Assembly (NCBI GenBank): GCA_043814605.1
Contig: JBDRJV010000037.1
Location: 31,899 to 95,898, forward strand
Origin: Candidatus Omnitrophota bacterium
GTDB taxonomy: Bacteria; Omnitrophota; Gorgyraeia; B26-G9
Direction: 5' to 3'
DNA: 64,000 bases
Positions 2,511 to 47,167 of the stretch are shown piece after piece. Numbering within the stretch: the first letter of the stretch is position 1; the number at the start of each line of letters is the position of its first letter. The position numbers and the translations under genes were made by a program. Under the pieces are notes generated by a model. The model ran no database searches. It saw nothing but the letters and a program-made list of their open reading frames with translations, and was not told the DNA's origin.

Positions 2511-3572
2511 ATGCTGCAAAGTATATATTTTCAATTAAATAATTTTATGGCTTTTTACAATCTTTTTTCAGTACGGCAAGCAGCCAGTTTTTTACAAAAT
2601 TTGCCGTTATCAATTAATTTATTGAGAACGGCAAAGTGTAATTTAAATTGCCGGATTTGCTCAGCTAAAGACATGCTTAATATAGGGAATGAATTAACCA
2701 CGGGTGAAATCATCAGCTTTATTGAAAAAAATGCAGAGTATAAACCGATTTTTTTTATCGGAGGAGGAGAACCTTTTATCCGTAAGGATATCCTGGAATT
2801 TGCCAGAGTGTTCAGCCGGAATAAATTAAAATACGGGATTGTTACTAATGGGACTTTGCTTAATCCCGAAATTATGGGTGAATTGTTCAATAATAAATTA
2901 AATGTGCTGATTTTTTCTTTACATGGCAATCAGCTGCAGCATGATAAGGTGACCGGTAAAAGTGGGGCATATAGTTTAATTAGTAATAATATAAAATTTG
3001 CTGCGAAAAATAAGAAAAGTACTAAAATAATTTTAAATTTTGTAATAAATGAGGAGAATTATTTACAGCTTGAGCAAATTATTAAATTTGGAAAAAATCA
3101 AGGAGTAAATCAAGTAAGAATTGAGCATTTAATTTTTTTAACAAAAAATGAATACAAGCAGCATTTAGAAGTTTGCCGGAAACTTTTTCCAAAGAACAAT
3201 ACAAATCTTGTAATTTTTAAAAAGGATATTAATAATTTGGAAATTGGTGATTTTTTAAAAAAAGAGATACCTCGCTTAAAAAAGAAATACAAAAATTTTG
3301 TTTTATTTAAACCGCATTTGAGTCAAGCTGAAATTGAATCATGGTATTGTGAGAATTTTCAATTAAATCGTAAGTGTTTTTTTGTGCAGCATTCAGTTTT
3401 TGTAAACCCAAACGGAGATATTGTTCCCTGTCAGTTTTTAGGAAATTATAAACTAGGGAATATCAAGGAGGTTGAGTTAGTTGATGCCTGGCGAAATAAA
3501 GCCAGTCAAAATATTAAAAAAACTTTAAAGCAAAAGATTTTACCCGGATGTAACCGATGCTGTAAATTATGA
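2511..3572 (+). CDS. Radical SAM / SPASM-domain protein
   Basis: CNLNCRIC is a CxxxCxxC radical-SAM motif near the N-terminus. The C-terminus has a cysteine cluster (CQFLGN...PGCNRCC) typical of SPASM/twitch auxiliary clusters. The start abuts the upstream stop (TAAATG). Confidence 0.8.
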   Translation: MLQSIYFQLNNFMAFYNLFSVRQAASFLQNLPLSINLLRTAKCNLNCRICSAKDMLNIGNELTTGEIISFIEKNAEYKPIFFIGGGEPFIRKDILEFARVFSRNKLKYGIVTNGTLLNPEIMGELFNNKLNVLIFSLHGNQLQHDKVTGKSGAYSLISNNIKFAAKNKKSTKIILNFVINEENYLQLEQIIKFGKNQGVNQVRIEHLIFLTKNEYKQHLEVCRKLFPKNNTNLVIFKKDINNLEIGDFLKKEIPRLKKKYKNFVLFKPHLSQAEIESWYCENFQLNRKCFFVQHSVFVNPNGDIVPCQFLGNYKLGNIKEVELVDAWRNKASQNIKKTLKQKILPGCNRCCKL

Positions 3573-4117
3573 AAATTTTGTTAAATAAAAGTTATAACTT
3601 ATTAAGGGATATATATTTAGAAAGCATTAATTTTACGGATAAAACTAAGCTTTTAGATATCGGTTGCGGTTTGAGGGGTAATTTTCTAAAGCTGCCTAAA
3701 TTTGTGTATACAGGTGTTGATGCTAATAAACATATTATTGCTAAATTGAGAAAGAAATCAGATGGGCTATATGAGTGTATGGATGCGAATGATTTAAAAT
3801 TTGAAAATAACTTTTTTGATTACATAATATCAACGAGTTTTTTCCATCATTGCTCAAAGAATAATATTCGTGCGATAGTAGAGCAAATAAAAAAGATTTT
3901 AAAAGATTCGGGAAAAATAATTATTGCAGATGGGGTATATCCGGATTCTAAAATTAATATTTTAGGATATTTAATTAGATTTTTTGACCGGGGTAGATTC
4001 GTGAGAAGAAAAGATGAATTCAGAGAGTTATTTGAGAATTTTTTTATTGTTAAAAAAGAAGTTTATTTTGTGAATAAGTTTTTTGCATATTACGTATTAG
4101 TAATGGAAAAAAAATAA
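3569..4117 (+). CDS. Class I SAM-dependent methyltransferase
   Basis: LLDIGCGLRGNF matches Rossmann motif I of SAM methyltransferases. It overlaps the upstream gene by 4 nt (ATGA). Confidence 0.65.
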   Translation: MKILLNKSYNLLRDIYLESINFTDKTKLLDIGCGLRGNFLKLPKFVYTGVDANKHIIAKLRKKSDGLYECMDANDLKFENNFFDYIISTSFFHHCSKNNIRAIVEQIKKILKDSGKIIIADGVYPDSKINILGYLIRFFDRGRFVRRKDEFRELFENFFIVKKEVYFVNKFFAYYVLVMEKK

Positions 4118-4118
4118 G

Positions 4119-5555
4119 ATGATAAATCAGTTAAAACAAAAAAAAAATAATTCAGAACTTTTAGTGTTTACAGTAATTTTAGCCTGTGGATTTTTTATGC
4201 GGCTTTTTTCTTTAATAAATTCAGATAATTTCCATGGTATTGCGGCAGGTAAAATTTTTGAAGCTCGTTATTTGCTCAAACATCCAGAGGAGCTTTGGGC
4301 TTGGATTGTCCCGGCCCATGGGCCGGTGCATTTATACTTGATCGCAATTTTATTTAAAATATTTGGTGATTATATAATTATTGCAAGATTAATAAGTTTA
4401 TTTTCCGGAGTGGCCTTATTTTTTCCCTATTATAAACTGATCAAACTTTCCTTCAGCAGAGATATTGCGCTTTTTAGTTGTTTTATCGCAGCTTTTTTTT
4501 ACTTACATGTAATTTATAGTGTGATTTCGACTGCGGAATCAATTTTTATTTTATTTTTATTTTCGGGGTTGTATTTTTATTTTAAATATTTCCAAAGTCA
4601 AAGAGTTTTTGAGTTGATAATTTCTGCGCTTTGTGTAGGAGTTTCAAGTATGTGTCGATTTGAAGGAGGGTTATACATAGTTTTATTAAGTGCTTTTTTA
4701 ATAAAAAAACCAAAAATAATGTTGATTTTTTTAATAAGTTCCTGTATGTTGCCTTGGGTTTGGATAGTTTTTAATTTTATTTTGTACGGCGATTTTTTCT
4801 ATTTTTTAACATCAAGCGATAATATCGTAAAGTATGAATTTGATAACCTAAAAGTTTACGGAACTCAATATACAATAACCGAGAGAATTTTATATTGGCC
4901 AATGGTATTAAAAGGGTATTTTGGAAATATATTATTTATTTTCGGTATAATCGGGCTTTGGTCTAATTTTCGCAACGCTAAAACTAAACTGCTGTTAGTT
5001 CTATTCCTGAGTATTTTAGGTTTTTTTATTTTTAAAACTTTTTATAAAGAACTGGCAATGCAGCCGCGTTATGGATTAAGTCTCGGATGCTTATTCATCC
5101 CGTTTATTGCAGATGCCTTATTAACTGGCTATACAAGAGTAAAAAAAATTTCCAAAAATTTAATACTGGCTCGGGATCAATTTAAAATGCTATTTTTTTT
5201 AATTCTTTTTTATATAGTAATAAGAGGATCATATTTAAGTTTAGTGCAATTACCGCATACTCCTCTCTGGGTAGAGAAAACAGCTAAATTTCTTGCTGCT
5301 AATGTAGACGAAAATAAAAATGAATTAGTGTATATTGATTCTGATGATGATAATTTTATAGAGCCGATTAAAATTTTATCGGGACTGGATGTGGACAGTT
5401 TTGTGGATATGCAGGCAGAAGGAACACATAAAGAATTGATTGAATCAGCTTCTTTAAAAAATATTAAATATCGTATTTTAATTTCAAAAACCAGGAATCT
5501 TAATTTAAAACAAATTTTTCAAGCTTCTGATTGTAAAATTTATAAAATAAAGTAA
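4119..5555 (+). CDS. Polytopic membrane protein, GT-C-like glycosyltransferase (paralog A)
   Basis: 478 aa with about 10 TM helices and a C-terminal soluble domain. The N-terminal motif FHGIAAGKIF is shared with the next gene (DTFHGIAAGRTL), so the two form a tandem paralog pair. Confidence 0.5.
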   Translation: MINQLKQKKNNSELLVFTVILACGFFMRLFSLINSDNFHGIAAGKIFEARYLLKHPEELWAWIVPAHGPVHLYLIAILFKIFGDYIIIARLISLFSGVALFFPYYKLIKLSFSRDIALFSCFIAAFFYLHVIYSVISTAESIFILFLFSGLYFYFKYFQSQRVFELIISALCVGVSSMCRFEGGLYIVLLSAFLIKKPKIMLIFLISSCMLPWVWIVFNFILYGDFFYFLTSSDNIVKYEFDNLKVYGTQYTITERILYWPMVLKGYFGNILFIFGIIGLWSNFRNAKTKLLLVLFLSILGFFIFKTFYKELAMQPRYGLSLGCLFIPFIADALLTGYTRVKKISKNLILARDQFKMLFFLILFYIVIRGSYLSLVQLPHTPLWVEKTAKFLAANVDENKNELVYIDSDDDNFIEPIKILSGLDVDSFVDMQAEGTHKELIESASLKNIKYRILISKTRNLNLKQIFQASDCKIYKIK

Positions 5556-5560
5556 ATTAT

Positions 5561-7057
5561 ATGTCAAATAAAATCACTAAAAGCAGCATCATTTTAATCC
5601 TGATAATAACCGCGATCTTTATAGGTTTAAGATTATTTTTATTACTGGACACGGATACTTTTCATGGTATTGCCGCAGGAAGAACTTTGCTTGCAGAATT
5701 AATATTAAGGAACGGTTTTTATTCAAAGTTATGCTTTGTTCCCGTACATCCGCCAATACATACAGTTATGCTAGTTGCGGGATTGTTTATCTGGAATAAT
5801 CCGATAATTTTACCTGGGTTAGTAAGTTTATTTTTCGGGACGCTTACTTGCCTTCCTTTTTATTACTATAACAAAAGTGTTTTTGATGAAAAAGTGGCTG
5901 TATTTTCGCTAGCAGCAATTAGTTTGTATTCTGATCATATTGCTTATAGTATTATTGGGACTTCAGAAACAATTTTTCATTTTTTTCTTTTCAGTAGTTT
6001 AGTTTTTGCTTTATTTTTTAAAAAAAACAAGAATATGCGGTATTTTTATCTGAGTGCAATAATGATTTCAATAGCTAGTTTATGCCGGTATGAAGGAATA
6101 ATATTTATCCCTTTTTTTTCTGTTTTTTTAACTAAGAAAATAAAAAATATTATTCTCTTTCTAATTGTTTCTTTAATTTTACCGGGTATATGGATGTGCG
6201 TAAATTTTTATTTTACCGGAAATTTTATATATTTTTTAAATACTAATGATATTACCGTACCTTTACAATTTAATTGGATGCGGTTGCAGGGGCTAGATAT
6301 AAACGTTACTTATAAAATTCTATTTTGGCCGCGAGTTTTAATCAATACAATAGGAGTATTTTTTCTTTTTTTTGGACTTGGGGGAGTTATCTTTTGTTTA
6401 AAGAGAGGAGAAAAATTATTTCCGGCAGGATTAGTCATATTTATATTATGTTTATTTGTATTAAGAACTTATCAAGAAAAACTCTATTTGCAGACTCGCT
6501 ACGGCATAACCATTGGTTTATTATTAATTCCTTTTGCAATTTACTTTTTTCAGGTTACTGTTAAAAAGATTAATCGTAACTTGCCGGACTGGTTAGTTTT
6601 ATTTTTACTTTTGACCCTGATTCCTGCCTGGGGAAAGACACTTTCCCAGGAAAGCTTATTTCTCCCGGATACAGTTAAAAATATAAGCAGTTTTTTAGGT
6701 AAAGAAGTTAAAGAAAATGAAAATATTTTTATAACTTCAGAACAAAATGAAAATTATCGTGAAGTGATAAAATTAAGAAGCCGTCTTAATCCTAAACAAT
6801 TTATACTAATTCCGTATCTTGAGCCGTATGAAAACAAATTTATTATAAAACTGGAAACATTTTTTCAATATTTAGAAAAAGAGAATATTAAGTTTTTTGT
6901 CTATTCTCCAGAGGGAGAGTTAGGAAATATTCTGAAATTTGAGGGAAAAGGGGAAAAGTTTAATATGAATGGGTTCTGGTTCAAGCTTATTTATAAAAAT
7001 AGATTATATCATATTTATAAGGTAGACCCTTTAAAAGAGGGGGTAGAAGATGTTTAA
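5561..7057 (+). CDS. Polytopic membrane protein, GT-C-like glycosyltransferase (paralog B)
   Basis: 498 aa with the same TM topology and the shared N-terminal FHGIAAG motif as 4119..5555. Confidence 0.5.
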   Translation: MSNKITKSSIILILIITAIFIGLRLFLLLDTDTFHGIAAGRTLLAELILRNGFYSKLCFVPVHPPIHTVMLVAGLFIWNNPIILPGLVSLFFGTLTCLPFYYYNKSVFDEKVAVFSLAAISLYSDHIAYSIIGTSETIFHFFLFSSLVFALFFKKNKNMRYFYLSAIMISIASLCRYEGIIFIPFFSVFLTKKIKNIILFLIVSLILPGIWMCVNFYFTGNFIYFLNTNDITVPLQFNWMRLQGLDINVTYKILFWPRVLINTIGVFFLFFGLGGVIFCLKRGEKLFPAGLVIFILCLFVLRTYQEKLYLQTRYGITIGLLLIPFAIYFFQVTVKKINRNLPDWLVLFLLLTLIPAWGKTLSQESLFLPDTVKNISSFLGKEVKENENIFITSEQNENYREVIKLRSRLNPKQFILIPYLEPYENKFIIKLETFFQYLEKENIKFFVYSPEGELGNILKFEGKGEKFNMNGFWFKLIYKNRLYHIYKVDPLKEGVEDV

Positions 7058-8282
7058 ATTGTGCCGAGGCCGAATAATATTTTCAATGGATATATTCGGA
7101 GATTTAATTAAAAGTTTTTTTAGTAAAAAAAATAATGGAGAGTTAACTATTAAAAAATTTGAAGATGATTTTGCTCAATATATTGGCAGTAAACATGCAG
7201 TTGCGGTTGCTTCGGGTAAGATGGCATTGTATTTAACGTTGAAGGCATTAGGCGCAAAGGAGGGGGATCAGATTATTATTCCTGCCTATACAGTTAGCGA
7301 AGTTATTGATGTAATTATTCTTTGTAAATTAATACCGGTTTTTGTGGATATTAATCTTAAAGACGCGAATATTGATGTATCCTTGATTGAAAAAAGAATT
7401 ACTCCGAATACTAAATTTATCTTAATGGTACATATGTTTGGATGCCCCTGTGACATTGATGAAATAATTGCAATAAGCAAAAAATATAATCTTAAAGTTA
7501 TTGAAGATGGAGCTCAGAGCTGTGGGGCTGAATATAAAGGAAAAAAAATAGGAAGTTTTGGTGATATTGGGTATTTTAGCTTTGGCATCATGAAAAATTT
7601 AAATACATTAGGCGGGGGAATGATTGTAGCGCAAAATTCTGATCGAATAAATTTTATTAGAAAACAGATAAATAAGTTTTCTGAAAATTTGATGGGGCAA
7701 CTTTTTAAAAAAACGGTTTTAGTTTTTTTTGTATCTATACTAACTACGCCGGTTATATTCTCATTTGTAGTATATCCGTTACTATTTATTATCGAAGAGA
7801 ACAGAAGAGAAAAAATATTTAAGAGTTTATTTAAAGCTAGACCTGTAACAGCACAGTGTATGGAAAAGCTAAAAGTAAAATTTTCTCCTTATCAAGCGGC
7901 GATTGGCATAGCCGGCCTTAAAAAAATTGAACAGATAAATCAAAAGCGGATAAATAATGCTAAAGTTCTAAATCAGGCTCTTAATAATATCGATGGTGTT
8001 TCTTTGATTAAAGAATCAAGTGATTCAAAAAACATTTATTTAAACTATGTGATCCGCATTAATAACAGACAAAAACTAATTAATCGTATGTTTAATAAAG
8101 GAATTGATGTAAGTGCGGGGTTTATTGAATGCTGTCCGGATTTAGCCAGATTTGAGCTTTACCAGTGCGATTGTCCTAGAAGCAGGATTTGGGAAAAAGA
8201 AAATCTATATTTACCGGTTTATCATCCGCTGAAAAGAGAAGTAATGATAAAAATTTCGAAATTAATAAAGGAAGCATTGTGA
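7050..8282 (+). CDS. DegT/DnrJ/EryC1/StrS-family PLP-dependent sugar aminotransferase (ArnB-like), with unusual hydrophobic insertion
   Basis: Family motifs are present: EDGAQSCGAEYKGKKIGSFGDIGYFSF...K...GGGMIV and the FSPYQAAIGIAGL region. A ~45 aa insertion (KTVLVFFVSILTTPVIFSFVVYPLLFII) is absent from the two other DegT paralogs in this window. Confidence 0.8.
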   Translation: MFKLCRGRIIFSMDIFGDLIKSFFSKKNNGELTIKKFEDDFAQYIGSKHAVAVASGKMALYLTLKALGAKEGDQIIIPAYTVSEVIDVIILCKLIPVFVDINLKDANIDVSLIEKRITPNTKFILMVHMFGCPCDIDEIIAISKKYNLKVIEDGAQSCGAEYKGKKIGSFGDIGYFSFGIMKNLNTLGGGMIVAQNSDRINFIRKQINKFSENLMGQLFKKTVLVFFVSILTTPVIFSFVVYPLLFIIEENRREKIFKSLFKARPVTAQCMEKLKVKFSPYQAAIGIAGLKKIEQINQKRINNAKVLNQALNNIDGVSLIKESSDSKNIYLNYVIRINNRQKLINRMFNKGIDVSAGFIECCPDLARFELYQCDCPRSRIWEKENLYLPVYHPLKREVMIKISKLIKEAL

Positions 8283-8296
8283 AAAATAATCATAGC

Positions 8297-9676
8297 ATGG
8301 AGGGTGGTTTGAATATAATTAAGAATGCCTTACGAGGAGTCGGCGGGTTATTTTTATTAGCTTTTTTTGTGCGGCTTGGTTTTTTAATGAGTTCTGATAA
8401 TTTTTACGGATTTGGGCCGATGTTAAATATTATTACCGCATTAAAGGCTTTTAATTATTTTTCTTTTTTTGAAAATATTTATTTCTGCCCTTTACCCTTT
8501 TATTTATATTCACTGGTTTTTTCAGTATGGATGGGAACGGAACAAATTATTTGCGCACAGTTTTTAAGTTTATTATTCGGCAGTTTAAGCATACCAATTT
8601 TTTATTTATTTGTAAGAAAAAATTTCAATAAACTAATCGCTTTTTATGCCGCATTAATTTTGTGTTTTTATCCGGCCCATATCATAATGAGTATTATTAC
8701 AAGCGCGGATAGTATAGGTTTTTTTCTTTTACTTGTTTGTTTAAATCTAATTTTAAATAAAAATTATTTTTACGCATCAATAATATTAGCAATAAGTTGC
8801 GGATTTACCTATTTAGCATGGGTTTTTGTGCTGATTTTAAATTTATTTATGTTTATCCAATCGGATAAAAAAAATATAAAAAAAATAATAAAATTATTTT
8901 TTTTCAGTATAATTAGTTGTTCTGTTCCTGCAGCTATCATAGTTTTAATCAAGATTAAATATTGCTCGCAAGGGCTTTTTTACAGGAATTTTTATTTAGC
9001 AGACTCATTTATGCGCTACATAATAAATTATGGCAATACGGTTAAAATCGCAATCAGGGCTTTGTTAATGCAGCCGGTTTCGGGATTTTTCCTGGTTAGT
9101 TTAATCGGAGTTTTTTTCTTTTTAAAACAAAAAAGGATAAAGTGTTATGATTTAATTTTTTTATTTGGACTCACATTAATATTGATTTGTTTAGGGATAT
9201 TTAGAGATGAAATTTGCATTTTAGGTCAGGGTGTAAACTTTTTATCAATCATGTGCATACCTTTTTTTGTTTTTGCCGTTACATCCATATTGCAAAAATT
9301 TAAAATAAAAAAGATAATCTTTGTTTTAATTTGCATTTTTTGTTTGATTTTGTTTTTAGTCAGTACTTGTTTAAAACCGAAATTACCGGAAAAAGTAAAA
9401 GAATTGAGTGCCTGGCTAAAAGAAAATATTGATGAGAAAACCAAAATTTATATAAACAAGGATGAAACAGGGTATTATAGTTCAATTATCATGCTTAGCG
9501 GTCTGCCGCAGGGTAATTTTAAATATTATAATAGCTTTGATGATTTTTCTGGCCAGGTTGATGCTGAGGATAATTATCTTATTCTTAGTCTGGAGCAATA
9601 TAGTCAAGCTAAAAATGTTCCGGGTGAGAATTTAATAGTTTTAGAAGGTTATTCTGTATATAAATTAGATAACTAG
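8297..9676 (+). CDS. Polytopic membrane protein, probable GT-C-like glycosyltransferase
   Basis: The ORF track starts at 8189, overlapping the upstream gene by 94 nt. The first in-frame ATG after the upstream stop (8282) is at 8297 (MEGGLNII). The protein is multi-TM throughout with a soluble C-terminal tail. Confidence 0.45.
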   Translation: MEGGLNIIKNALRGVGGLFLLAFFVRLGFLMSSDNFYGFGPMLNIITALKAFNYFSFFENIYFCPLPFYLYSLVFSVWMGTEQIICAQFLSLLFGSLSIPIFYLFVRKNFNKLIAFYAALILCFYPAHIIMSIITSADSIGFFLLLVCLNLILNKNYFYASIILAISCGFTYLAWVFVLILNLFMFIQSDKKNIKKIIKLFFFSIISCSVPAAIIVLIKIKYCSQGLFYRNFYLADSFMRYIINYGNTVKIAIRALLMQPVSGFFLVSLIGVFFFLKQKRIKCYDLIFLFGLTLILICLGIFRDEICILGQGVNFLSIMCIPFFVFAVTSILQKFKIKKIIFVLICIFCLILFLVSTCLKPKLPEKVKELSAWLKENIDEKTKIYINKDETGYYSSIIMLSGLPQGNFKYYNSFDDFSGQVDAEDNYLILSLEQYSQAKNVPGENLIVLEGYSVYKLDN

Positions 9677-12253: not shown

Positions 12254-13143
12254 TTGAAATCAGCATTGTTATTGTAACTTATTCTGCAGAGAAATTCATA
12301 AAAAATTGTTTAGATTCTGTTTTTGCGCAGGATTTAAATAATTTTGAAGTTATTATTATTGATAATAACTCTGGCGATAATACTATTAATATCTTAAAGA
12401 AATATTTGTCAAAAATAATTTTAATAGAAAATAAAAAAAATGAGGGTTTTTGTTTCGCAACTAATCAAGGCATATTACTTGCAAAAGGAAAATATATATT
12501 TACTTTAAATAGCGATGTTTACTTAAGTAAGGACTACGTTTTAAATTTAAAAAATTTTTTAGAAAGAAATTTAGAAGCAGGCATGGCAGGGGGTAAATTG
12601 TTAAGAATGGATAAAATAACTATCGATACTATCGGCCTAAAATTGGGGGTTTTTTATCGGTTCTTAAATATCGCAGAATCGGAGAAAGATACGGGTAAAT
12701 ATAAAGTTCCTTTAGAAATTATGGGTCCTTGTGCAGCCGCGGCCTTATATAAGCGGGAGCTTTTAGAGAGTATTAGATATAAGGATGAATTTTTTGATAA
12801 TCAGTTTTTTTTCTTGGCTGATGATTTTGATATTGCCTGGCGGGCACAGCGAATAGGTTGTAAGGGGTTTTATGTTCCAAATGCAGTTTGCTGGCATTAC
12901 CGGGATAGTTCAGGGCATAAATCCCAGTTCAAACAATACCTTTCATTCAGAAACAGGTATTATTTATTGATTAAAAATGCGGGTTTTAAAACTGTTTTTT
13001 TGTTTGCATTAGGTTTTTTATTTTATGATTTTCCCAGGCTGGTTTTTCTTTTAATAACTAATACTAAGTATACAGCGAAAGCAATAGCGGAAATTTTTAT
13101 GAATATGCCTGAAATTTTATCAAAGCGTGTAAAAAAAATATGA
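12250..13143 (+). CDS. GT2 family glycosyltransferase
   Basis: Has the IVIVTYSAEKF...IIIDNNSGDNT N-terminal GT-A signature and a DDFDIAWRAQ region. It is a paralog of 49120..50097. Confidence 0.7.
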   Translation: MIEISIVIVTYSAEKFIKNCLDSVFAQDLNNFEVIIIDNNSGDNTINILKKYLSKIILIENKKNEGFCFATNQGILLAKGKYIFTLNSDVYLSKDYVLNLKNFLERNLEAGMAGGKLLRMDKITIDTIGLKLGVFYRFLNIAESEKDTGKYKVPLEIMGPCAAAALYKRELLESIRYKDEFFDNQFFFLADDFDIAWRAQRIGCKGFYVPNAVCWHYRDSSGHKSQFKQYLSFRNRYYLLIKNAGFKTVFLFALGFLFYDFPRLVFLLITNTKYTAKAIAEIFMNMPEILSKRVKKI

Positions 13144-14252
13144 AAAAATTTACAAGAAGAGAATTTTTGCAAAAAGGAATAGGTTTAAGTACTGCAGTGG
13201 TCAGCGGACAGTTATTCAATGAAAATGTTTTTGCGCGTAATATTAATTTAACTAAACCAAGTCTTGTTTCAATAGCTAAAGGAAAGCATATTTCAAAAAT
13301 TACACAGGAAGCAATTCAAGAAATCGGAGGTATGGATAAAATAGTAAAACCGGGGCAAACTGTATTCATAAAACCTAATTATATTGCGGGAGGATTTATG
13401 GGGCATGATCCGGTGACTTCCGGAGAAATCCCGCATCCGGAAGTAGTGGCGGCAGTGGCCTGTGAATGTTTAGAAGCCGGGGCAAAAAATGTATTGATTG
13501 GAGAATGGTTTGAACGCCCGTTAGAAATAATGTGGCAGGGAAAAGAAGGTAAAGAAGGAGCTCAATTAAAGAAAAAAATTGATTTAATTAATAAAAAATA
13601 CGGAAATAAAGTATATTTAATTGATCTAAGAAAATATACAGAATCATTTTTTTATGTGCCTTCTTTGACAAAGATTAAATGGCTGGCGATTCCGAATTTA
13701 GTTAAAGAAGCAGATGTTATTATTTCAATTGCTGTTTTAAAAACACATCATTACCCAATTTCCGTAACTTTTGGCATGAAGAATTTTGTCGGTATTATGC
13801 CTTCCATTCTTTATGGTGAGCCCAGAATGAAATTACATCAGGCAGGGATTAATCAGATAATCGTAGATATCATACGGGGAATAACGCCAAGTTTAACAGT
13901 GATTAGCGGTGTTTTTGGCATGGAAGGAGAAGGAGTTGTTAAATCTTTTGGTGGAATTTCGGTTGATATCAGTCAAAGGATTGGCGGATACATTGTGATC
14001 GCAGGAGTTGATCCTGTAGCTACAGATGCTATAGCAACCCGGATTATAACTGAAAATTGGCATCCACAACCTAAAAATACTGATTTAGGAGTTCCTTGGT
14101 ATATTAAACATTTGAGACTGGCGTATCAACAGGGATTAGGCAATATAAAAAAATCAAATATTATAATTAAAGGTGCAGCTTTGAACGAGGTAAAAATGCC
14201 CTGGAAAATGCCGCAAGCCAATACATATCCGGAGTTACCTAATTATGTTTAG
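13140..14252 (+). CDS. Twin-arginine-signal DUF362-domain protein
   Basis: The N-terminus TRREFLQKGIGLSTAVVSG matches the Tat consensus S/T-RRxFLK plus an h-region. VFIKPNYIAGG resembles the DUF362 hallmark (IKPN). Domain call is by eye. Confidence 0.45.
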   Translation: MKKFTRREFLQKGIGLSTAVVSGQLFNENVFARNINLTKPSLVSIAKGKHISKITQEAIQEIGGMDKIVKPGQTVFIKPNYIAGGFMGHDPVTSGEIPHPEVVAAVACECLEAGAKNVLIGEWFERPLEIMWQGKEGKEGAQLKKKIDLINKKYGNKVYLIDLRKYTESFFYVPSLTKIKWLAIPNLVKEADVIISIAVLKTHHYPISVTFGMKNFVGIMPSILYGEPRMKLHQAGINQIIVDIIRGITPSLTVISGVFGMEGEGVVKSFGGISVDISQRIGGYIVIAGVDPVATDAIATRIITENWHPQPKNTDLGVPWYIKHLRLAYQQGLGNIKKSNIIIKGAALNEVKMPWKMPQANTYPELPNYV

Positions 14253-15675: not shown

Positions 15676-15814
15676 GAGATAATTAATCCGGTGAAGAGGA
15701 TTATTGCTAAACCCAATATAATATTTATTAAAAAATTAGGGACGGTTAAGTTTTAATTAGTTAAGATTTTTATATTTGAGTACAGTATTCCATAAAAGTT
15801 TAGAAAGAAAAGTT

Positions 15815-18968: not shown

Positions 18969-18987
18969 TTTTAACTGGGGTGGTCCA

Positions 18988-24746: not shown

Positions 24747-24752
24747 AGTTAT

Positions 24753-26135: not shown

Positions 26136-26144
26136 GAATAGAAT

Positions 26145-32933: not shown

Positions 32934-33895
32934 ATATAAAATATGATTTTAGAAATGAACGGGAAAAGAATTTTCCTTTGATGCTTAATTTGGAAATAAC
33001 TAATATCTGTAATTATCAATGTATACATTGTCCTTATCCAAGTATTTCTCAAAGAAAAGATTATACCCCTAAGTTTATGTCCTGGGAAATTTTTAAGAAA
33101 ATAGCTGATCAAACTGCTAATTATCCTGAGACAATTTTTAGATTTGTTTGTGATGGGGAACCAATGATGCACCCAGATTTTTTAAGAATGGTTGAATATG
33201 TTAAAAACTTAAAAATCAGTCCGGTTTGTTTTACTACTAACGGATATTTTTTAACCCCGGAGGTTTCTCGTAAAATAGTTGAATTTGGTTGTGACCTTAT
33301 CGAAATAAGTTTAGATGCTTTTTCAGAGTATAGTTATAATAAAATCCGCCGGGGTGGAAATTATCATAAAGTTATTGATAACCTTAATTATCTTATCCAG
33401 TCAAAAAATGAACTATCTGCAAAGAGTTCAAAGATTATGGTTAGTATTATAGATCAGCCTTTAGTTAAAAATGAGATAACTACATTTAAGAATTTTTGGC
33501 AGGATAAGGTAGATTATGTGATTACAAGAGTATTAACGAGTGCGGGCGGGTTTATTAAGGAATCTATTCGAGATAATAAAACTGATGTGGAAATACGATG
33601 GCCTTGTCCTTTATTATGGCGGAGATTGTTTATTAATGTAGATGGTTGGGCTGAATATTGTGTGGATGATTGGTTAGATCAATCGATTTTAGGTGATGTA
33701 AATAAAGAGAGTATTGCCTCTATCTGGGGAGGCCAAAAATATCGAGATTTAAGAAAAAATCACATAAATAATAATTTTAGTTACAATGAAAAGTGTGCAC
33801 AATGTCAGGATTGGAGAGCCAGAACCTGGGAAAATGATTATTTTCATGCAATAGAGAGGATTTTTAATTTAAATTTTAAAAATGAGAATTATTGA
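32930..33895 (+). CDS. Radical SAM / SPASM-domain protein
   Basis: EITNICNYQCIHCP (CxxxCxxC). A downstream Cys-rich region (CPLLW...C...CAQCQ) is consistent with SPASM/twitch clusters. Confidence 0.75.
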   Translation: MNIKYDFRNEREKNFPLMLNLEITNICNYQCIHCPYPSISQRKDYTPKFMSWEIFKKIADQTANYPETIFRFVCDGEPMMHPDFLRMVEYVKNLKISPVCFTTNGYFLTPEVSRKIVEFGCDLIEISLDAFSEYSYNKIRRGGNYHKVIDNLNYLIQSKNELSAKSSKIMVSIIDQPLVKNEITTFKNFWQDKVDYVITRVLTSAGGFIKESIRDNKTDVEIRWPCPLLWRRLFINVDGWAEYCVDDWLDQSILGDVNKESIASIWGGQKYRDLRKNHINNNFSYNEKCAQCQDWRARTWENDYFHAIERIFNLNFKNENY

Positions 33896-35222
33896 TAGTA
33901 CAAAAAGCTTATGTCCGGTTTGTTTACAATGGATTGATTCTGCGGTAGTTACAAAAGATGACCATAAAGTATATTTAGAAAAAAAATGTCCGGAACATAA
34001 AGGAAGTTTGGTGTTTCTTTCTCCGGATGCAGAAGGATTTATTGTTTTAAGAGATTTCTACTTTCAAACTCATCAAAAAATATTTCCCCAAACTCGCTAC
34101 CTTTGTTTTTTAACCCCTAAGTGCAACCTTTCTTGTCCAATTTGTTTTTTGGATTCAGGAATGCAGGATAAAGAAGATATTAATAGGAAAGACTTAGTTA
34201 GGTTTTTGAATAATGGCAAAAAAGAAATAATTATTTTTGGAGCAGAGCCAACTTGCCGTAAAGATATTTTTGAAATAATCAGTTTTCTTAAAAAAAAGCA
34301 GCATTCGGTGAGTCTATACACTAATGGGATAAAATTAGTTGATTATAAATATGCGGAGAAGATTAAGCAAACAAAAGTAAACAAAATATATTTTCAATTT
34401 GATGGTTTTGATGATTCTATTTATGAGGTTTTACGTAAAGTAAAGCTCAAAGATCTCAAGATTAAGGCATTAGATAATTTAAAAAAAATTAATATGCCTG
34501 TGGTTTTAGATGTTGCCTTAGCCAGAGATGTTAATATTAACCAAATGGGATCTATTTTTGAATACGCTCTGAATAACAATTTTATTAAAACAATAAACTA
34601 TATCGCTTATGTGCGTTCTGGTGGAGGAGGAAAATATCTAGCGAATCAAGCAATTATGCCGGATGAATTAATAGACGAAATAAGTAAAGCTACAAAAATG
34701 AGAATAAACAGAGTTAATATGAGAATTTTTCAGAAGTTATTATATGTGTATATGTCAACTTTAAAGAAAAGAACATGTTTTTATATTAAATATTTTTGGG
34801 TTTTCCGCACAGAAAATAACCAGTATTTAACATTTGATCAAATAATTAATTTTGATATGCTAGAAAAAATATTAAATAAGTATGTATTATTAGTAAAAAA
34901 ACAAAATCAGATAATTGCTAGTATGTATTTAGTACTGAAACTTCCTTTTTTACTTTTTTCTATAAAAAACAATAAAGCTTTTTTTCAAATGCTGAAAATG
35001 ATTTTTTCGCATGTTTTTAATCGGGGAGATTATTCTTGCGTTAGGGGTGAGTTTTTACAACTAATATTTACTACTGCCTGTGATGTGGATAAGGCAGATT
35101 TGAAGATTTCGCAGCGTTGTCATGTGGGCATGATGTATAAAAATAAACAAGAAAAATTAGAAGTTTTTAATGAAAATGGTATGTATTTATTAAATCAGGA
35201 AATTCAGAAGAAAGGTGTTTAG
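33882..35222 (+). CDS. Zinc-ribbon-fused radical SAM enzyme (paralog 6 of 6, divergent)
   Basis: CPVC...CPEHKG, CNLSCPIC, FGAEPTCRKDI, YTNGIKL. Confidence 0.75.
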   Translation: MRIIDSTKSLCPVCLQWIDSAVVTKDDHKVYLEKKCPEHKGSLVFLSPDAEGFIVLRDFYFQTHQKIFPQTRYLCFLTPKCNLSCPICFLDSGMQDKEDINRKDLVRFLNNGKKEIIIFGAEPTCRKDIFEIISFLKKKQHSVSLYTNGIKLVDYKYAEKIKQTKVNKIYFQFDGFDDSIYEVLRKVKLKDLKIKALDNLKKINMPVVLDVALARDVNINQMGSIFEYALNNNFIKTINYIAYVRSGGGGKYLANQAIMPDELIDEISKATKMRINRVNMRIFQKLLYVYMSTLKKRTCFYIKYFWVFRTENNQYLTFDQIINFDMLEKILNKYVLLVKKQNQIIASMYLVLKLPFLLFSIKNNKAFFQMLKMIFSHVFNRGDYSCVRGEFLQLIFTTACDVDKADLKISQRCHVGMMYKNKQEKLEVFNENGMYLLNQEIQKKGV

Positions 35223-38924: not shown

Positions 38925-40139
38925 ATGCAGGCTAATCATAAATTAAAACCAGCTATTGCAGGGGGGAAACCCGTAAGGAAAAAAATGCTGCCTTTGCATC
39001 AATCTGATTTTTCTCAAGCAGAAGAAAAAGCGGTAATAAAAGTTTTGCGCTCGGGATGGCTGACTAAGGGGCCGCAAACAAAAACACTCGAAGAAAAATT
39101 TACTAAATTTGTTAAAGCCAAATATGCTATTGGGACAAATTCTGGGACAAGTGCATTACATCTTGCTTTGAGTTGTTTAGATTTAAAAAAAGGTGATGAG
39201 ATTATAGTTTCTCCGCTGACTTTTGTCTCTGCGATTAATTCAATTATTCATTGTAATTGCAAACCTGTATTTGTTGATGTTGATCCCCTAACTTTAAATA
39301 TTGATCCCGAGCAGATTGAATCTAAAATCAATATGAGAACTAAATGTATAATGCCCGTACATTTATATGGACAAGCATGTGTGATGAATAAAATTTTAAG
39401 AATAGCTAAAAAAAATAAAATATTTGTAATCAGTGATGCGGCGCATGCTTTAGAAACAGTATATAACCGGAAAAAAATCGGCTCGATCGGGGATATCACT
39501 TGTTTTAGTTTTCATCCGGCTAAAAATATTACTTCTGGGGAAGGAGGAATGCTGGTAACAAATAATAAAAAGTTTGCACAAAAAGCTCAAATGTTAAGTT
39601 TGCATGGTATAGATAAAAGTACTTGGACCAGATACACTCAAGATAGATTTCAGCATTGGACAACAATCGCGCCGGGGTTTAAATATCACATGACTGATCT
39701 GCAAGCTGCAATTGGTTTAGCCCAATTAGAAAAAATCAAAAAATTTTGGCAAAAAAGAAAAAAATACACAAAAATGTATTTATCTGCTTTTAAAGATATT
39801 CCTCAAATAAGAGTGATTACAAAAATGTCATCACTAAAAAATAAAAATGCATATCATTTATTCATAATACAAATAGATACAAAAATGTTAAAAATTAATA
39901 GAGACTATATTTTAAATGCACTACTAGCTGAAAATATTGGGGTAGGGGTTCATTATCGTGCAATTCATTTACACAGTTTTTATAAGAACCATTTTAGTTT
40001 TAAAAAAGGAATGCTGCCTCAGGCTGAGTATGCAGCAGAGAGAATAATTACTTTACCCTTATATCCAAAAATGAAACAAAGTGATATTAGTGATGTTATT
40101 GATGCAGTGAGCAAGGTTATAACCTATTATAAAAAGTAG
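38925..40139 (+). CDS. DegT/DnrJ/EryC1/StrS-family PLP-dependent sugar aminotransferase
   Basis: SDAAHALETVYNRKKIGSIGDITCFSFHPAKNITSGEGGMLV (an SFHxxK PLP-lysine motif) and DLQAAIGLAQLEKI. Confidence 0.85.
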   Translation: MQANHKLKPAIAGGKPVRKKMLPLHQSDFSQAEEKAVIKVLRSGWLTKGPQTKTLEEKFTKFVKAKYAIGTNSGTSALHLALSCLDLKKGDEIIVSPLTFVSAINSIIHCNCKPVFVDVDPLTLNIDPEQIESKINMRTKCIMPVHLYGQACVMNKILRIAKKNKIFVISDAAHALETVYNRKKIGSIGDITCFSFHPAKNITSGEGGMLVTNNKKFAQKAQMLSLHGIDKSTWTRYTQDRFQHWTTIAPGFKYHMTDLQAAIGLAQLEKIKKFWQKRKKYTKMYLSAFKDIPQIRVITKMSSLKNKNAYHLFIIQIDTKMLKINRDYILNALLAENIGVGVHYRAIHLHSFYKNHFSFKKGMLPQAEYAAERIITLPLYPKMKQSDISDVIDAVSKVITYYKK

Positions 40140-41972: not shown

Positions 41973-43166
41973 ATGTCTATTTCGAGAAGAAATTTTTTAA
42001 AAAATAGTTTAAAATTTTGTGCAGGAGTTGGATTATGCATCTTAACAAAAAGTTTCTGGGATAATTTTGAAAATACAGAAAGGATAGACAATTTTTTATT
42101 AAAAGAAGCAAAATATTATCGTAAAGGAAGTAACAATACTGTGCAATGCTTATTATGTGCCAGAAATTGTGTAATTAAGGATAAAAAAAGAGGGTTTTGC
42201 CAAGCCAGGATAAATAGTAAAGGTAAATTATTTAGTATGGTATACGGAAGTGTGATTATAACCCATTCAAAGGATAGACCGTTTAGGTCTTTGATTTATT
42301 TTGCTAATGATATTGAAGGGCTATGTATTGGTACAGCTGGATGTAATATGAGATGCAAGTTTTGTCTTGCCTCAGGAATTAGTCAGGTAAAACCTGAAGA
42401 TATTAAGATTAATAATAGATTTCCTTTTACTATGAATAAGAAACAAAATAAGACTCAGATTCTTCCAGATCAATTGATAAGCATGGCCAAAAAAAACAAT
42501 GTAAAATTAATTCATTTTAATCTTAATGAACCTACAATATATTATGAGTATATGCTAGATGTGGCAAAAATAGCGGTAAAAAATGGAATTTTTACAATGC
42601 TATGGAGCAATGCATATATAAATAGGGACCCTTTGCTTGAGTTAGCTCCTTATTTAGGCGGAGCGAGCATTGGATTGAAAGCTTTTAACAATGATATCTA
42701 TAAAAAGTTTTGCAGCGGAGAATTAAGTCCGGTTTTAGATACTTTAAAGTTGCTGAAAAAACAAAAAATTCCTTTTGAGATAATTTATCCAGTCATTCCG
42801 ACTGTTAATGATGATACTCAACAAATTAAAGATATGTGTTTTTGGATTAAAGATAAATTGGGTACGGAAGTGCCATTGCATTTTTATCGTTTCCTGCCTA
42901 GGTATAAATTAGTTAATTATCCTCCAACCCCTATCTCAACCTTGGAATCCATACAGAGTTTGGCTAAAAATACTGGTCTAAAATATGTATATGTTTTCTA
43001 TATGGGAGATTATCCTATCCCGGGCATGGAAGAAAAAATTTATTGTCCAAATTGTAAGAAATTAGTTTTATTACGTAAAAATTTAAATAATCTTGTAATA
43101 AATAATACGAAAAATTCCTGTTGTAAATTTTGCGGTGAAAAATTACTTTTTTTTATTTTTAAATAA
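41973..43166 (+). CDS. AmmeMemoRadiSam-system-type / PflA-like radical SAM enzyme with N-terminal twin-arginine-like leader
   Basis: ATG with GAGAGGA 7 nt upstream. The N-terminus SRRNFLKNSLKFCAGVGLCIL matches the Tat consensus. CLLCARNCVIKDKKRGFCQARINSKGKLFSMVYG followed by GTAGCNMRCKFCLASGIS matches the characteristic N-terminal half of AmmeMemoRadiSam/PFL-activase-type rSAMs. Confidence 0.7.
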   Translation: MSISRRNFLKNSLKFCAGVGLCILTKSFWDNFENTERIDNFLLKEAKYYRKGSNNTVQCLLCARNCVIKDKKRGFCQARINSKGKLFSMVYGSVIITHSKDRPFRSLIYFANDIEGLCIGTAGCNMRCKFCLASGISQVKPEDIKINNRFPFTMNKKQNKTQILPDQLISMAKKNNVKLIHFNLNEPTIYYEYMLDVAKIAVKNGIFTMLWSNAYINRDPLLELAPYLGGASIGLKAFNNDIYKKFCSGELSPVLDTLKLLKKQKIPFEIIYPVIPTVNDDTQQIKDMCFWIKDKLGTEVPLHFYRFLPRYKLVNYPPTPISTLESIQSLAKNTGLKYVYVFYMGDYPIPGMEEKIYCPNCKKLVLLRKNLNNLVINNTKNSCCKFCGEKLLFFIFK

Positions 43167-43234
43167 TCTAAATTATGGGAAAAATTTATTACTTAATACG
43201 ATTAAATAAAAAATTGAAAATTTATTAAAAATAT

Positions 43235-44644: not shown

Positions 44645-44659
44645 AAGGAATTAATTTAA

Positions 44660-46144
44660 ATGAAAATAATGTTTTATTATTCTGCCTTTGAAAATTTAGG
44701 CATTGAATATCTTTCTGCAGTTTTAAAACAATCCGGACATAAAACCCGCCTTCTCTTTGATCCGGGTTTATTTAACGACCCTTTTTTGAGTATTAAACCA
44801 TTGGCTAAAATTTTCAACTGGGAGAAAAAATTATTACGTGAATTTACCCAATACAATCCGGGTTTAGTAGCCTTTTCTGTGACGAGTTCAACTTATTTAG
44901 CCGCATTGGATTTTTCAAAAAAACTTAAAAAAATAACGAAAATTAAAATAGTTTTTGGCGGGATCCATGCCAGTGCAGTGCCAGAGGTTGTTATAAAGGA
45001 TGATGCAGTTGATTACTTAATTGTGGGTGAAGCAGAAGAAGCTTTATTGGAACTAGTCGAGGCATTAGAAAACAATAAACCGATTAATAGCATTAAAAAT
45101 CTGTGGTATAAAGATAGGTATAAAATCTTTAATAATTCTTTAAGAGACTATATTACTGATCTTGATAAACTTCCATTTCCAGATAAGGATCTTTATTATG
45201 ATCAAATTCCTGAATATAGAAGCGGGTATACAATAATTACCCGCCGGGGTTGTCCGAATCATTGTGCTTATTGCCATAATAGTTTATGGCATAAATTATA
45301 TAAAGATTATGACAGTGAAATTGTCCGGTACCGAGGGGTAGATAATGTAATTACAGAGTTAAAACAGGCAAAAAAAAAGTATAATTTTAAAAGGGTTCGC
45401 ATAAACGATGAAATTTTTACTCTTAATGAAGGCTGGTTAAAGGAATTCTCTGCAATGTATAAGAAATATATTAATCGGCCAATGTTCTGTTTTGTTAGTC
45501 CTCATACTGTAAACGAAAAAACTGTAGAATGTTTAAAAGCTATGAATTGTTATCAGGTTTGTATGGGTGTGCAAACTCTAAATGAAGAAAAGAATAGAAT
45601 CTTGTTAAACCGCAATCAAACTAATAATCAGGTAAAACAGGCAATTAAATTATTTCGTGAATATAAAATTCGTTGTGTTGTGGATAATATAATTGGTTTA
45701 CCTGGTGAAAAGGAAGAAGATTTATTGCAGATGGCAAGGTTTTATAATAATAACCGTCCCGATAGGATTTGTATTTTTTGGCTGATTTATTTCCCTGGGA
45801 CAAAAATTATAGATGCAGGATTAGAAAAAGAGGTGCTTAACCAAAAAATGCTAGAAGAAATTAAAACAAATCCGCAAGCTACAGCGAATACTATCTATAG
45901 TCTGTTACATGAAAGGGGCAAGAATAAGTATTATATTTTGCTTCTGCTGATACATTTTTTACCTAAAAATATTATTGATTTTATCATAAAGAAAAGATTA
46001 TTTGAATTATTTTCATTATTAAACCCCTCGTTGATTGAAATCCCTTTTACGATGATTGCTCGGGACAGATTAGATATAGTCAGACGCAGATATTATTCAC
46101 GTTATATCAAATATGGAATTAAAAAATTATTTTTAGTTGGATAA
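44660..46144 (+). CDS. B12-binding-domain radical SAM protein (paralog subfamily 'LGIEYLSA')
   Basis: LGIEYLSAVLKQSGH, ITRRGCPNHCAYCHN, C-terminal IHFLPKNIIDFIIKKRLF. Confidence 0.8.
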   Translation: MKIMFYYSAFENLGIEYLSAVLKQSGHKTRLLFDPGLFNDPFLSIKPLAKIFNWEKKLLREFTQYNPGLVAFSVTSSTYLAALDFSKKLKKITKIKIVFGGIHASAVPEVVIKDDAVDYLIVGEAEEALLELVEALENNKPINSIKNLWYKDRYKIFNNSLRDYITDLDKLPFPDKDLYYDQIPEYRSGYTIITRRGCPNHCAYCHNSLWHKLYKDYDSEIVRYRGVDNVITELKQAKKKYNFKRVRINDEIFTLNEGWLKEFSAMYKKYINRPMFCFVSPHTVNEKTVECLKAMNCYQVCMGVQTLNEEKNRILLNRNQTNNQVKQAIKLFREYKIRCVVDNIIGLPGEKEEDLLQMARFYNNNRPDRICIFWLIYFPGTKIIDAGLEKEVLNQKMLEEIKTNPQATANTIYSLLHERGKNKYYILLLLIHFLPKNIIDFIIKKRLFELFSLLNPSLIEIPFTMIARDRLDIVRRRYYSRYIKYGIKKLFLVG

Positions 46145-46177
46145 ATATTAAATTGATCAAAGTATCAGGATAAAATT

Positions 46178-47167
46178 ATGAATTCAGGATTATTGAATAT
46201 ATTAAAAATTGTTAGAATTTTTTTTAAAGTAAAATTTTTTAGAAATAAAATTCCTATTTTTGTGGGCTGGGATTTAACTTACAGGTGTAACTTTAATTGT
46301 CAATATTGTAAAATTCCGAAACTTGATACCGATCGAGAATTGTCAACGGATAAGGTGTTAAAAATGATAGATCAGTTTAGTAAACTTGGTGTTTGCCGTA
46401 TACATTTTGGTGGGGGAGAGGTTCTATTACGAGATGATCTTGATCAAATTTTAAAATTTTGTAAAAAAAGAAATATTTATACTGTTATTCTCACAAATGG
46501 AGCTTTATTTGAAGCTAAGATACCTGTTATAAAGAAAGCAAATCTAATAAAAGTAAGTTTTGATGGTCCTGCTAAAATTCATGATAATTTGCGTCATAAG
46601 GGGTCTTATAGTCAGATTGTTAAAGTATTAGTTTTAGCAAAAAAACTTAAAATAAAAGTAACGTTAAGTGCAACTTTAACTAGAAAAAATTATGAATATA
46701 TTGATTATATTTTAGATTTTGCTAAAGAAAATAGGACCCCAGTAAAATTTCAGTTAGTTAATGAGTTCTTGTCAGGATCTAAAGACATTGCTAATCTTAA
46801 GCTTTCCCGAGAGCAGCAGCAGAAGGCAATGGGAAAATTATTAAAGGAAAAAAAGAGGAGCGGGTATATAATAAATTCTAAAAATGCACTGGAGTATATG
46901 CGTGATTACCCAAATGTAAAAAATTTATGTTGTACGGCAGGAAAGCTTTATGTGCGTGTTTCTGTTGATGGAAGGCTATATCCGTGCGAAATACTAAAAG
47001 ATGAGTTTTTAAAAAATACATCTTTTGAAAAAGATATCGGTAAATCATTCAAAGTATTAAAAAATGTTAATTGTAAATATTGTTTATGTACTACAACATT
47101 AGAATTAAATCAATTATTTTCTTTAAATTTAAATGCAATTTTTAATGGGCTAAAGTATTTTAGTTAA
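46178..47167 (+). CDS. Radical SAM / SPASM-domain protein
   Basis: DLTYRCNFNCQYCK (CxxxCxxC). The C-terminus has CCTAGKLY...CE...CKYCLC, consistent with SPASM. Confidence 0.8.
   Translation: MNSGLLNILKIVRIFFKVKFFRNKIPIFVGWDLTYRCNFNCQYCKIPKLDTDRELSTDKVLKMIDQFSKLGVCRIHFGGGEVLLRDDLDQILKFCKKRNIYTVILTNGALFEAKIPVIKKANLIKVSFDGPAKIHDNLRHKGSYSQIVKVLVLAKKLKIKVTLSATLTRKNYEYIDYILDFAKENRTPVKFQLVNEFLSGSKDIANLKLSREQQQKAMGKLLKEKKRSGYIINSKNALEYMRDYPNVKNLCCTAGKLYVRVSVDGRLYPCEILKDEFLKNTSFEKDIGKSFKVLKNVNCKYCLCTTTLELNQLFSLNLNAIFNGLKYFS

Follow-up and report, generated by a model that had tools for sequence, protein, structure and literature searches.

The stretch of DNA analysed here (the window) comprises 64,000 nucleotides from a Candidatus Omnitrophota bacterium (contig JBDRJV010000037.1, positions 31,899 to 95,898), with a G+C content of ~29% and with all open reading frames (ORFs) of at least 150 aa on the + strand. 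Pfam and NCBIfam scans over all 49 of these long ORFs delineate a tightly packed, operon-like glycan island, in which only 7 gaps between genes reach at least 40 bp. The island holds 20 radical S-adenosylmethionine (SAM) genes, each encoding a protein with a Cx3Cx2C motif. Our subject is four of these, named by the positions at which they start (2511, 22287, 32930 and 46178), which an earlier note had grouped together as SPASM-type enzymes lacking a precursor peptide. The island, the four genes and the neighbours most closely tied to them are as follows.

54 to 54290, + strand: glycan island of 43 ORFs, operon-like and tightly packed, defined by Pfam/NCBIfam domain content
837 to 2510, + strand: PMT_2 (GT-C) membrane glycosyltransferase, with a 0 bp gap upstream of 2511
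2511 to 3572, + strand: twitch radical SAM protein, family A (Radical_SAM 6.5e-18, SPASM 3.4e-12)
3569 to 4117, + strand: class I SAM methyltransferase (Methyltransf_11 9.7e-15), its start overlapping the 2511 stop by 4 bp
22287 to 23339, + strand: twitch radical SAM protein, family B (Radical_SAM 1e-20), 2 bp after the B12-radical SAM gene 20818-22284
31866 to 32933, + strand: DegT/DnrJ/EryC1 sugar aminotransferase (DegT 1.2e-91), partner of 32930
32930 to 33895, + strand: BtrN-like twitch radical SAM protein, probable radical sugar dehydrogenase (Radical_SAM 4.1e-23, SPASM 8.7e-12)
46178 to 47167, + strand: twitch radical SAM protein, family B (Radical_SAM 4.5e-24), following the B12-radical SAM gene 44660-46144

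Families and auxiliary cysteines of the four proteins

All four ORFs proposed in the earlier note are present, and its CxxxCxxC assignment holds, with one Cx3Cx2C motif near each N-terminus (residues 43, 38, 27 and 37, respectively). Each protein matches Pfam Radical_SAM far beyond chance (E 6.5e-18 to 4.5e-24), homologues in other genomes share 44-58% identity with them, and no transmembrane (TM) segments are predicted in any of the four. They do not, however, constitute the single group that had been assumed. Rather, they fall into three unrelated families: 22287 is a paralogue of 46178 (26% identity over 331 aa, 5e-33), and 2511 and 32930 share the radical SAM core alone with these two.

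The C-terminal cysteines were counted, as the note had proposed, in alignments of 34 sequences for 32930, 22 for 2511, 12-14 for 46178 and, for 22287, 13 close plus 137 broad representatives. Exactly four C-terminal cysteines are conserved in each family, arranged as C-x17-C…C-x2-C, and other cysteines are variable. In addition to the three cysteines of the N-terminal motif, the invariant positions are C226, C244, C289 and C292, and no others, in the 32930 family (with C27/31/34); C289, C307, C347 and C350 in 2511 (with C43/47/50), where C351 is present in 95% of sequences; and C252, C270, C299 and C302 in 46178 (with C37/41/44), where C304 reaches 83%. In 22287 the conserved set is C38/42/45 together with C269, C287, C317 and C320, to which close orthologues add an invariant C197 and C322. 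Speculatively, the barrel residue C197 could donate an H atom, as happens in radical SAM epimerases.

A SPASM domain carries two auxiliary clusters and a twitch domain, which is a truncated SPASM domain, carries one (PMC9012708). The seven/eight-cysteine SPASM motif with its two auxiliary clusters (CX9-15GX4C…CX2CX5CX3C…C) is found in none of the four, whereas the twitch arrangement of BtrN, a hairpin pair followed by CxxC, is found in the families of all four. Pfam SPASM itself is matched by 2511 and 32930, with no match to 22287 or 46178 at E<=1e-3. Thus, the part of the "SPASM-type" label that stands is the Cys-rich C-terminal region present in all four proteins, but with four conserved C-terminal cysteines each and no seven-cysteine motif they are of the twitch type and not SPASM enzymes proper. 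Each C-terminal region is predicted to form a twitch domain, in which the four cysteines would fully ligate one auxiliary [4Fe-4S] cluster. The canonical SPASM enzymes (anSME, PqqE, AlbA, MftC, SuiB and CteB) belong to the same superfamily subgroup and share the first half of the motif, the C-x..-G-x4-C hairpin, with the window proteins, but have seven or eight cysteines and two auxiliary clusters where the latter have four cysteines and, as predicted, a single cluster.

All four stay under every curated family cutoff of NCBIfam. The best scores (bits/cutoff) are to NirJ1 (111/650), MoaA (94/284), a tungsten-cofactor maturase (112/380) and the PTO1314 family (119/306), the last being the best model for 46178. 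Several named identities were rejected because these and related scores lie far under the cutoffs. For MoaA (GTP 3',8-cyclase), the highest score is that of 22287, and the auxiliary site of MoaA has three cysteines (PMC9012708), compared with four conserved cysteines in the window proteins. The NirJ1 score, which bears on NirJ, AhbC and AhbD, belongs to 2511, and there are no tetrapyrrole genes near. For anSME (TIGR03942), 2511 reaches 45.9 bits (cutoff 349), has four cysteines and lies in a window that contains no sulfatase. The end-to-end alignment of HpnH with 46178 is weak, at 60 bits with 225 as the cutoff.

The BtrN-like protein 32930 and its aminotransferase partner

Specific relatedness to BtrN that includes the auxiliary-cluster domain is found for 32930 only. 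BtrN (2-deoxy-scyllo-inosamine dehydrogenase) has been described with respect to its reaction and its four-cysteine auxiliary cluster (PMC9012708). As a single sequence searched against the PDB, 32930 finds BtrN as its best match (3.2e-10), and with the family profile BtrN scores 3.8e-18, with the runner-up at 9.4e-11; this alignment takes in the twitch domain and matches all four cysteines. The AlphaFold2 model of 32930 (predicted local distance difference test score 91.5) likewise retrieves BtrN 4m7t as the top Foldseek match (1.7e-14, TM(target) 0.79). Like 32930, BtrN of the butirosin pathway (4M7T/4M7S) combines a radical SAM core with a twitch domain whose four cysteines follow the order C-x17/18-C…C-x2-C.

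The second line of evidence comes from the gene directly upstream. The best PDB matches of the 31866 protein are nucleotide-sugar and inositol aminotransferases (7b0d at 9e-56, QdtB and perosamine synthetase), and its TGA stop overlaps the GTG start of 32930 (GTGA), such that the two genes are translationally coupled. Related loci, denoted by L numbers, were collected through homologues and by scanning the species genomes of GTDB (23 loci). In about 15 of the 23, the twitch homologue is immediately preceded by a DegT gene, with spacings from overlapping to 3 bp apart (L004/L016, L007-L011, L013, L017-L019, L022, L026 and L027); the DegT gene is directly downstream in Elusimicrobia L024, and one gene off in Woesearchaeota L020 and Nitrospiraceae L023. 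In the distant loci outside Omnitrophota, the 32930 homologue is the sole radical SAM protein in classical nucleotide-sugar clusters, which hold GFO_IDH_MocA, hexapeptide acetyltransferase, DegT, Acetyltransf_6 and SDR 4,6-dehydratase genes. By comparison, no SDR or GFO oxidoreductase is present in the window island despite its three DegT genes, nor in the flanks (<=10 kb each side) of any locus of the Omnitrophota/Planctomycetes-Verrucomicrobia-Chlamydiae (PVC) type, each of which has 1-3 DegT genes.

The partnership also has its counterpart in the butirosin pathway, where BtrN works with BtrS/BtrR, as 32930 would with the DegT-family aminotransferase 31866. The settings differ, however, in that BtrN belongs to an aminoglycoside antibiotic cluster, whereas the 32930 family is found in an envelope-glycan island or in nucleotide-sugar clusters, and, unlike in the BtrN pathway, there is no 2-deoxy-scyllo-inosose synthase near 32930. 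Because of this glycan and nucleotide-sugar setting, and because that synthase is missing nearby, the substrate of 32930 is probably a (nucleotide) sugar and not an aminocyclitol.

We suggest that 32930 likely carries out a radical oxidation of a sugar hydroxyl that feeds transamination; the DegT coupling and the lack of an NAD-dependent oxidoreductase in the island point indirectly to a two-electron oxidation of a secondary alcohol. Modelled on BtrN, 32930 would cleave SAM reductively to give a 5'-deoxyadenosyl radical, which would take the carbinol hydrogen from a sugar C-OH, and the substrate radical would then become a keto-sugar by handing an electron to the auxiliary cluster with its full set of Cys ligands. 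The DegT protein 31866 would transaminate this ketone or, with the steps in the other order, would earlier supply the amino-sugar substrate, as BtrS does for BtrN. In either case, the 32930 step would stand in for the NAD-dependent oxidoreductase of classical amino-sugar pathways, which the island lacks.

We note that several loci with a BtrN-like gene share a pair of genes encoding proteins that belong to no Pfam family, namely a 278-aa protein, whose one N-terminal hydrophobic segment may be a signal or membrane anchor, and a YfhO-like protein of 618 aa with 10 TM segments. The pair is found at 18132-20805 of the window and at L013:2237-4910, L014:1046-3740 and L029:13750-16372, directly 3' of the BtrN-like gene in L013 and L014 and near it in L029. 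This placement beside the BtrN-like gene raises the possibility that the pair is a dedicated transferase for the modified sugar.

Substrates of 2511, 22287 and 46178 and alternative readings

Family A, represented by 2511, is nearly confined to Omnitrophota, and the gene order PMT_2, 2511-type radical SAM, small methyltransferase, PMT_2, PMT_2 is kept in L030 and L031. The 2511 core is closest in the PDB to SkfB (2.1e-26), and its twitch region also aligns to BtrN (2.9e-16). In family B, 22287 finds 22 cluster representatives at E<1e-30 and 3772 at E<1e-10, and none of ten representatives of the wider family is named by NCBIfam at E<=1e-35. Homologues of 46178 have as neighbours B12-binding radical SAM, deacetylase, GT2, Wzy_C, asparagine-synthase-type amidotransferase and YfhO genes. 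The profile search for 22287 and 46178 finds SkfB as its best PDB match (6.5e-31) across core and twitch, with BtrN at 1e-4 in the core only. The fold search with 46178 is flat, with SkfB, SuiB, CteB, MoaA, anSME, viperin-like proteins, PqqE and BlsE all between 1e-13 and 1e-11, and with no nearest neighbour in such a list no function can be transferred to 46178 from it.

The sactisynthase SkfB (6EFN) has a twitch of the C…C…C-x-C style comparable to that of 22287 and 46178. Its alignment covers residues 107-395, however, such that the window proteins lack its N-terminal peptide-recognition domain, and SkfB is encoded in an skf-type peptide operon, whereas 22287 and 46178 have a glycan gene setting. 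As the nearest solved structures are those of peptide enzymes, homology alone does not point 2511, 22287 or 46178 to sugars. Rather, these three most likely tailor sugars or lipid-linked sugars, an assignment made solely via their conserved context: 2511, together with the small SAM methyltransferase and among GT-C genes, as well as 22287 and 46178, each after a B12-radical SAM gene, would act on the same glycoconjugate in analogous steps of redox, epimerisation or related radical chemistry. The BtrN-like role on sugars that the earlier note had offered as one option is thus borne out strongly for 32930, by profile, fold, cysteines and DegT coupling, and for the other three by the glycan context only.

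The search for a precursor peptide agrees with the earlier statement that no small conserved peptide ORFs are present. The distances to the upstream and downstream neighbours are 0/-4 bp for 2511, 2/48 bp for 22287, -4/-14 bp for 32930 and 33/220 bp for 46178, and the twitch gene of the related loci likewise overlaps its neighbours or lies <30 bp from them. Across positions 1-55000, 26 mostly intergenic ORFs of 15-130 aa were compared by tblastn with 29 related loci. Apart from those that overlap mraZ, 0 of the 26 are conserved, and no conserved short ORF with leader/core organisation, the finding that the note had named as counting against its view, was detected beside the genes. The small ORFs at 54435-54992 were considered as peptide candidates because they are conserved, and were rejected because they overlap mraZ, which the list of ORFs of at least 150 aa misses. 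Pfam and NCBIfam scans of the island proteins revealed no PqqD or RiPP recognition element (RRE; RiPP, a peptide made by the ribosome and modified after translation), peptidase, exporter or sulfatase families. Moreover, only 26-42 residues precede the Cx3Cx2C motif in the four proteins, into which an RRE or peptide-recognition domain does not fit. Unlike canonical SPASM enzymes, the window proteins are accompanied by no peptide or protein substrate gene, RRE or sulfatase, and the framing as SPASM enzymes missing their precursor finds no support, given the absent SPASM motif, the lack of room for an RRE and the operon-like glycan setting. Because the genes sit inside such an island, a missing peptide gene is to be expected and is not puzzling.

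Taken together, we consider it probable that the four are sugar-tailoring twitch radical SAM enzymes, acting on nucleotide- or polyprenyl-linked sugars in an envelope-glycan island, and not peptide maturases. Several points weigh against this reading. The identity between 32930 and BtrN is ~19%, and the core of 32930 is larger, with six predicted strands and 321 versus about 250 aa. A dehydratase elsewhere in the genome could supply the keto-sugar, the analysis covering 64 kb, and adjacency to DegT fits a deamination of the DesI/DesII type or an amino-sugar epimerisation equally well. The solved structures nearest 2511, 22287 and 46178 are the peptide enzymes SkfB, CteB and PqqE, with MoaA close behind, and the small-ORF scan covered ORFs of at least 15 aa lying mostly between genes. 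Lastly, Tes-like and HpnJ/HpnR-like neighbours hint at a lipid or polyprenyl carrier and not a sugar ring.

The alternative that survives best, which we nevertheless deem unlikely, is that 32930 takes an amino sugar made by the DegT enzyme as its substrate, as a deaminase/lyase of the DesII type or an epimerase of the HygY/NeoN type. Twitch enzymes can be epimerases, and C197 of the close 22287 family could serve such a reaction as H donor. DesI and DesII of desosamine biosynthesis (8HZV) resemble 31866 and 32930 in that a DegT aminotransferase stands beside a radical SAM enzyme, and DesII provides a precedent for radical SAM chemistry on amino-sugar nucleotides. DesII is indeed among both the profile (4.4e-7, profile A1) and the fold (9e-10) matches of 32930, but the profile match is weak and confined to the core, and DesII is larger and not the best match. 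The profile comparison with BtrN and DesII that the earlier note had recommended places 32930 closest to BtrN, ~11 orders of magnitude above DesII, with the auxiliary-cluster domain included. A fully Cys-ligated auxiliary cluster, as predicted for 32930, also fits an electron acceptor in a two-electron oxidation (PMC9012708), and no other island enzyme would make keto substrates for the three DegT enzymes.

Rather improbable, in our view, is a lipid substrate for the four, such as polyprenyl phosphate as carrier, a membrane-spanning or hopanoid-like lipid, or the lipid moiety of a glycolipid, on which they would act together with the Tes-like and B12-binding radical SAM proteins. For 2511, 22287 and 46178, a lipid or carrier as substrate is nonetheless conceivable. 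The GT-C class, of which the island has eight enzymes, uses lipid-linked donors, several neighbouring radical SAM proteins contain a hydrophobic stretch, and the best named relatives of the six Tes/HMPTM-like and nine B12-binding proteins include Tes, HpnJ, HpnR and a ladderane-type lipid radical SAM enzyme, to which the weak HpnH alignment of 46178 may be added. These similarities are all far under family cutoffs, however, the four twitch proteins themselves have no predicted TM segment, and the BtrN-like 32930 family recurs in purely nucleotide-sugar clusters without lipid enzymes.

That the four are RiPP or protein maturases of the sactisynthase, PqqE or anSME kind with a substrate encoded outside the 64 kb inspected, the other option of the earlier note, appears very unlikely, though somewhat less so for 22287 and 46178 with SkfB as their best solved relative: the many weak NCBIfam matches to peptide maturases and the SkfB, CteB and PqqE relationships are offset by the cutoffs missed, the absence of a two-cluster motif, of a peptide-binding region, and of a conserved small ORF or any processing gene nearby, and by the packing of the genes, with overlaps or near-zero gaps, among glycan genes in a synteny kept across genomes.

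The radical SAM-rich island and its meaning

The set of four in the earlier note passed over 16 further radical SAM genes in the same island, which in total encodes four twitch, nine B12-binding, six Zn_ribbon_HMPTM/Tes-like and one AmmeMemoRadiSam-like protein. Its GT-C set, with 7-12 predicted TM segments per protein, consists of five PMT_2 proteins and three other multi-TM GT-C/YfhO-like proteins, and the further glycosyltransferases are three GT2 and one GT4. Three DegT, WbqC, polysaccharide deacetylase, DUF362, Wzy_C and two SAM methyltransferase genes are also present. The features beyond those listed above are:

4119 to 5555, 5561 to 7057 and 15776 to 17362, + strand: further PMT_2 genes (Pfam)
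7050 to 8282, + strand: second DegT aminotransferase (Pfam)
8189 to 9676, 18949 to 20805 and 51758 to 53491, + strand: GT-C-like genes (multi-TM)
within 10787 to 48833, + strand: nine B12-binding radical SAM genes (Pfam)
gene at 14833, + strand: polysaccharide deacetylase (Pfam)
23388 to 28855, + strand: four tandem Zn_ribbon_HMPTM plus radical SAM paralogues, 56-60% identical to one another
30448 to 31851 and 33882 to 35222, + strand: two further Zn_ribbon_HMPTM plus radical SAM genes (Pfam)
38925 to 40139, + strand: third DegT aminotransferase, PseC/ArnB-like, under cutoffs
41973 to 43166, + strand: AmmeMemoRadiSam-type radical SAM gene (TIGR04337, 231 bits against a cutoff of 220)

The six HMPTM proteins have Tes (tetraether lipid synthase) and TrsS as their best named relatives (150 bits against a cutoff of 450), and each has a hydrophobic stretch near residue 350. 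For the B12-binding proteins the best named relatives are BchE, HpnJ, HpnR and PhpK, all under cutoff; those encoded at 20818, 35228, 36739 and 44660 make up a subfamily of 34-41% identity whose members have a hydrophobic stretch around residue 415-425. Weak matches of the Tes/Mss type in Omnitrophota metagenome-assembled genomes (MAGs) have been taken as lipid markers (PMC11868695). Since such paralogues sit in a glycan island, weak Tes/Mss/HpnJ-like matches in Omnitrophota MAGs are unsafe as lipid markers.

Two island proteins bear a motif for twin-arginine translocation (Tat). The N-terminus of the 41973 protein has the twin-arginine motif MSISRRNFLKNSLKF, of which its orthologue in L001 (L001:20658-20948) retains TRRDFLKNGLKAAG, and a homologue in L028 (L028:1682-2758) has a Sec-like signal. 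The predicted export of this radical SAM protein is odd because SAM and the reductant are cytoplasmic, and no precedent for an exported radical SAM enzyme was found in the literature searched. The DUF362 protein (13140-14252) has the Tat motif MKKFTRREFLQKG and is 61-62% identical to its counterparts in the L015 and L018 islands.

On its 3' side the island is followed by the dcw cluster (mraZ-rsmH-ftsL-ftsI-murE-murF), of which mraZ (54531-54971, 146 aa) and ftsL (55899-56273, 124 aa) are too short for the 150-aa ORF list; the island adjoins mraZ again in L009 (L009:20300-20840). Conservation of the island extends across Omnitrophota, and in L007 and L009 a length of 21 kb holds 10-13 radical SAM genes. 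The loci L012, L018, L027 and L028, which have the DegT-twitch-HMPTM arrangement, are titled 'uncultured Planctomycetia/Planctomycetales' in GTDB contigs; either the island reaches that phylum or these MAGs are Omnitrophota/PVC bins under a wrong label. Searches of the window with Rfam (gathering thresholds) and ARAGORN returned no match, so that the larger gaps contain neither a riboswitch nor an RNA gene. Scanning for promoters and terminators was uninformative, with counts no higher than the shuffled expectation in this AT-rich sequence.

Some of the enzyme classes of the Arn pathway for lipid-linked amino sugars are represented in the island by the DegT protein 38925 (ArnB, 360 bits), the GT2 protein 38154 (ArnC, 75 bits), the deacetylase 14833 (the counterpart of ArnD, a deformylase of deacetylase fold) and several PMT_2 proteins (the GT-C counterpart of ArnT), with all island scores under the equivalog cutoffs. 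Unlike the Arn pathway, the island has no ArnA-type dehydrogenase/formyltransferase, and 20 radical SAM enzymes are added. A description of a radical-SAM-rich Omnitrophota glycan island was not found in the literature searched. Saturated with radical SAM genes, the island is unusual as a glycan cluster and is a more interesting feature than the four genes first flagged.

A bolder proposal, which we put forward only tentatively, is that the island encodes a pathway, undescribed and shared throughout Omnitrophota, that relies on radical chemistry for almost the whole assembly of an envelope glycan or glycolipid. Twitch enzymes would take the place of NAD-dependent sugar oxidoreductases, the nine B12-binding and six Tes/HMPTM-like proteins would add C-methyl groups or C-C links to amino sugars or the lipid carrier, and the radical SAM protein with the Tat signal might act beyond the cytoplasm. 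Such a pathway would yield an amino-sugar polymer that is heavily C-alkylated and has no known counterpart.

A SPASM-like radical SAM gene without a peptide gene need not encode an orphan RiPP enzyme, which corrects a tempting mis-annotation, and such proteins can be sorted, by the count of conserved cysteines together with gene context, as one-cluster twitch enzymes acting on small molecules. Judged from their sequences, the four would be new members of the twitch class, and 32930 would take BtrN-type chemistry from aminoglycosides to envelope sugars in several phyla. Indeed, the BtrN-like, DegT-tied family is spread over at least four groups at the phylum level (Omnitrophota/PVC, Elusimicrobia, Nitrospirota and Woesearchaeota). 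This distribution suggests that radical, NAD-independent sugar oxidation is, as an anaerobic route to amino sugars, general and not an aminoglycoside quirk. With radical SAM proteins making up nearly half of its genes, the conserved island is a rich target for new enzymology and may account for the surface chemistry of uncultured Omnitrophota.

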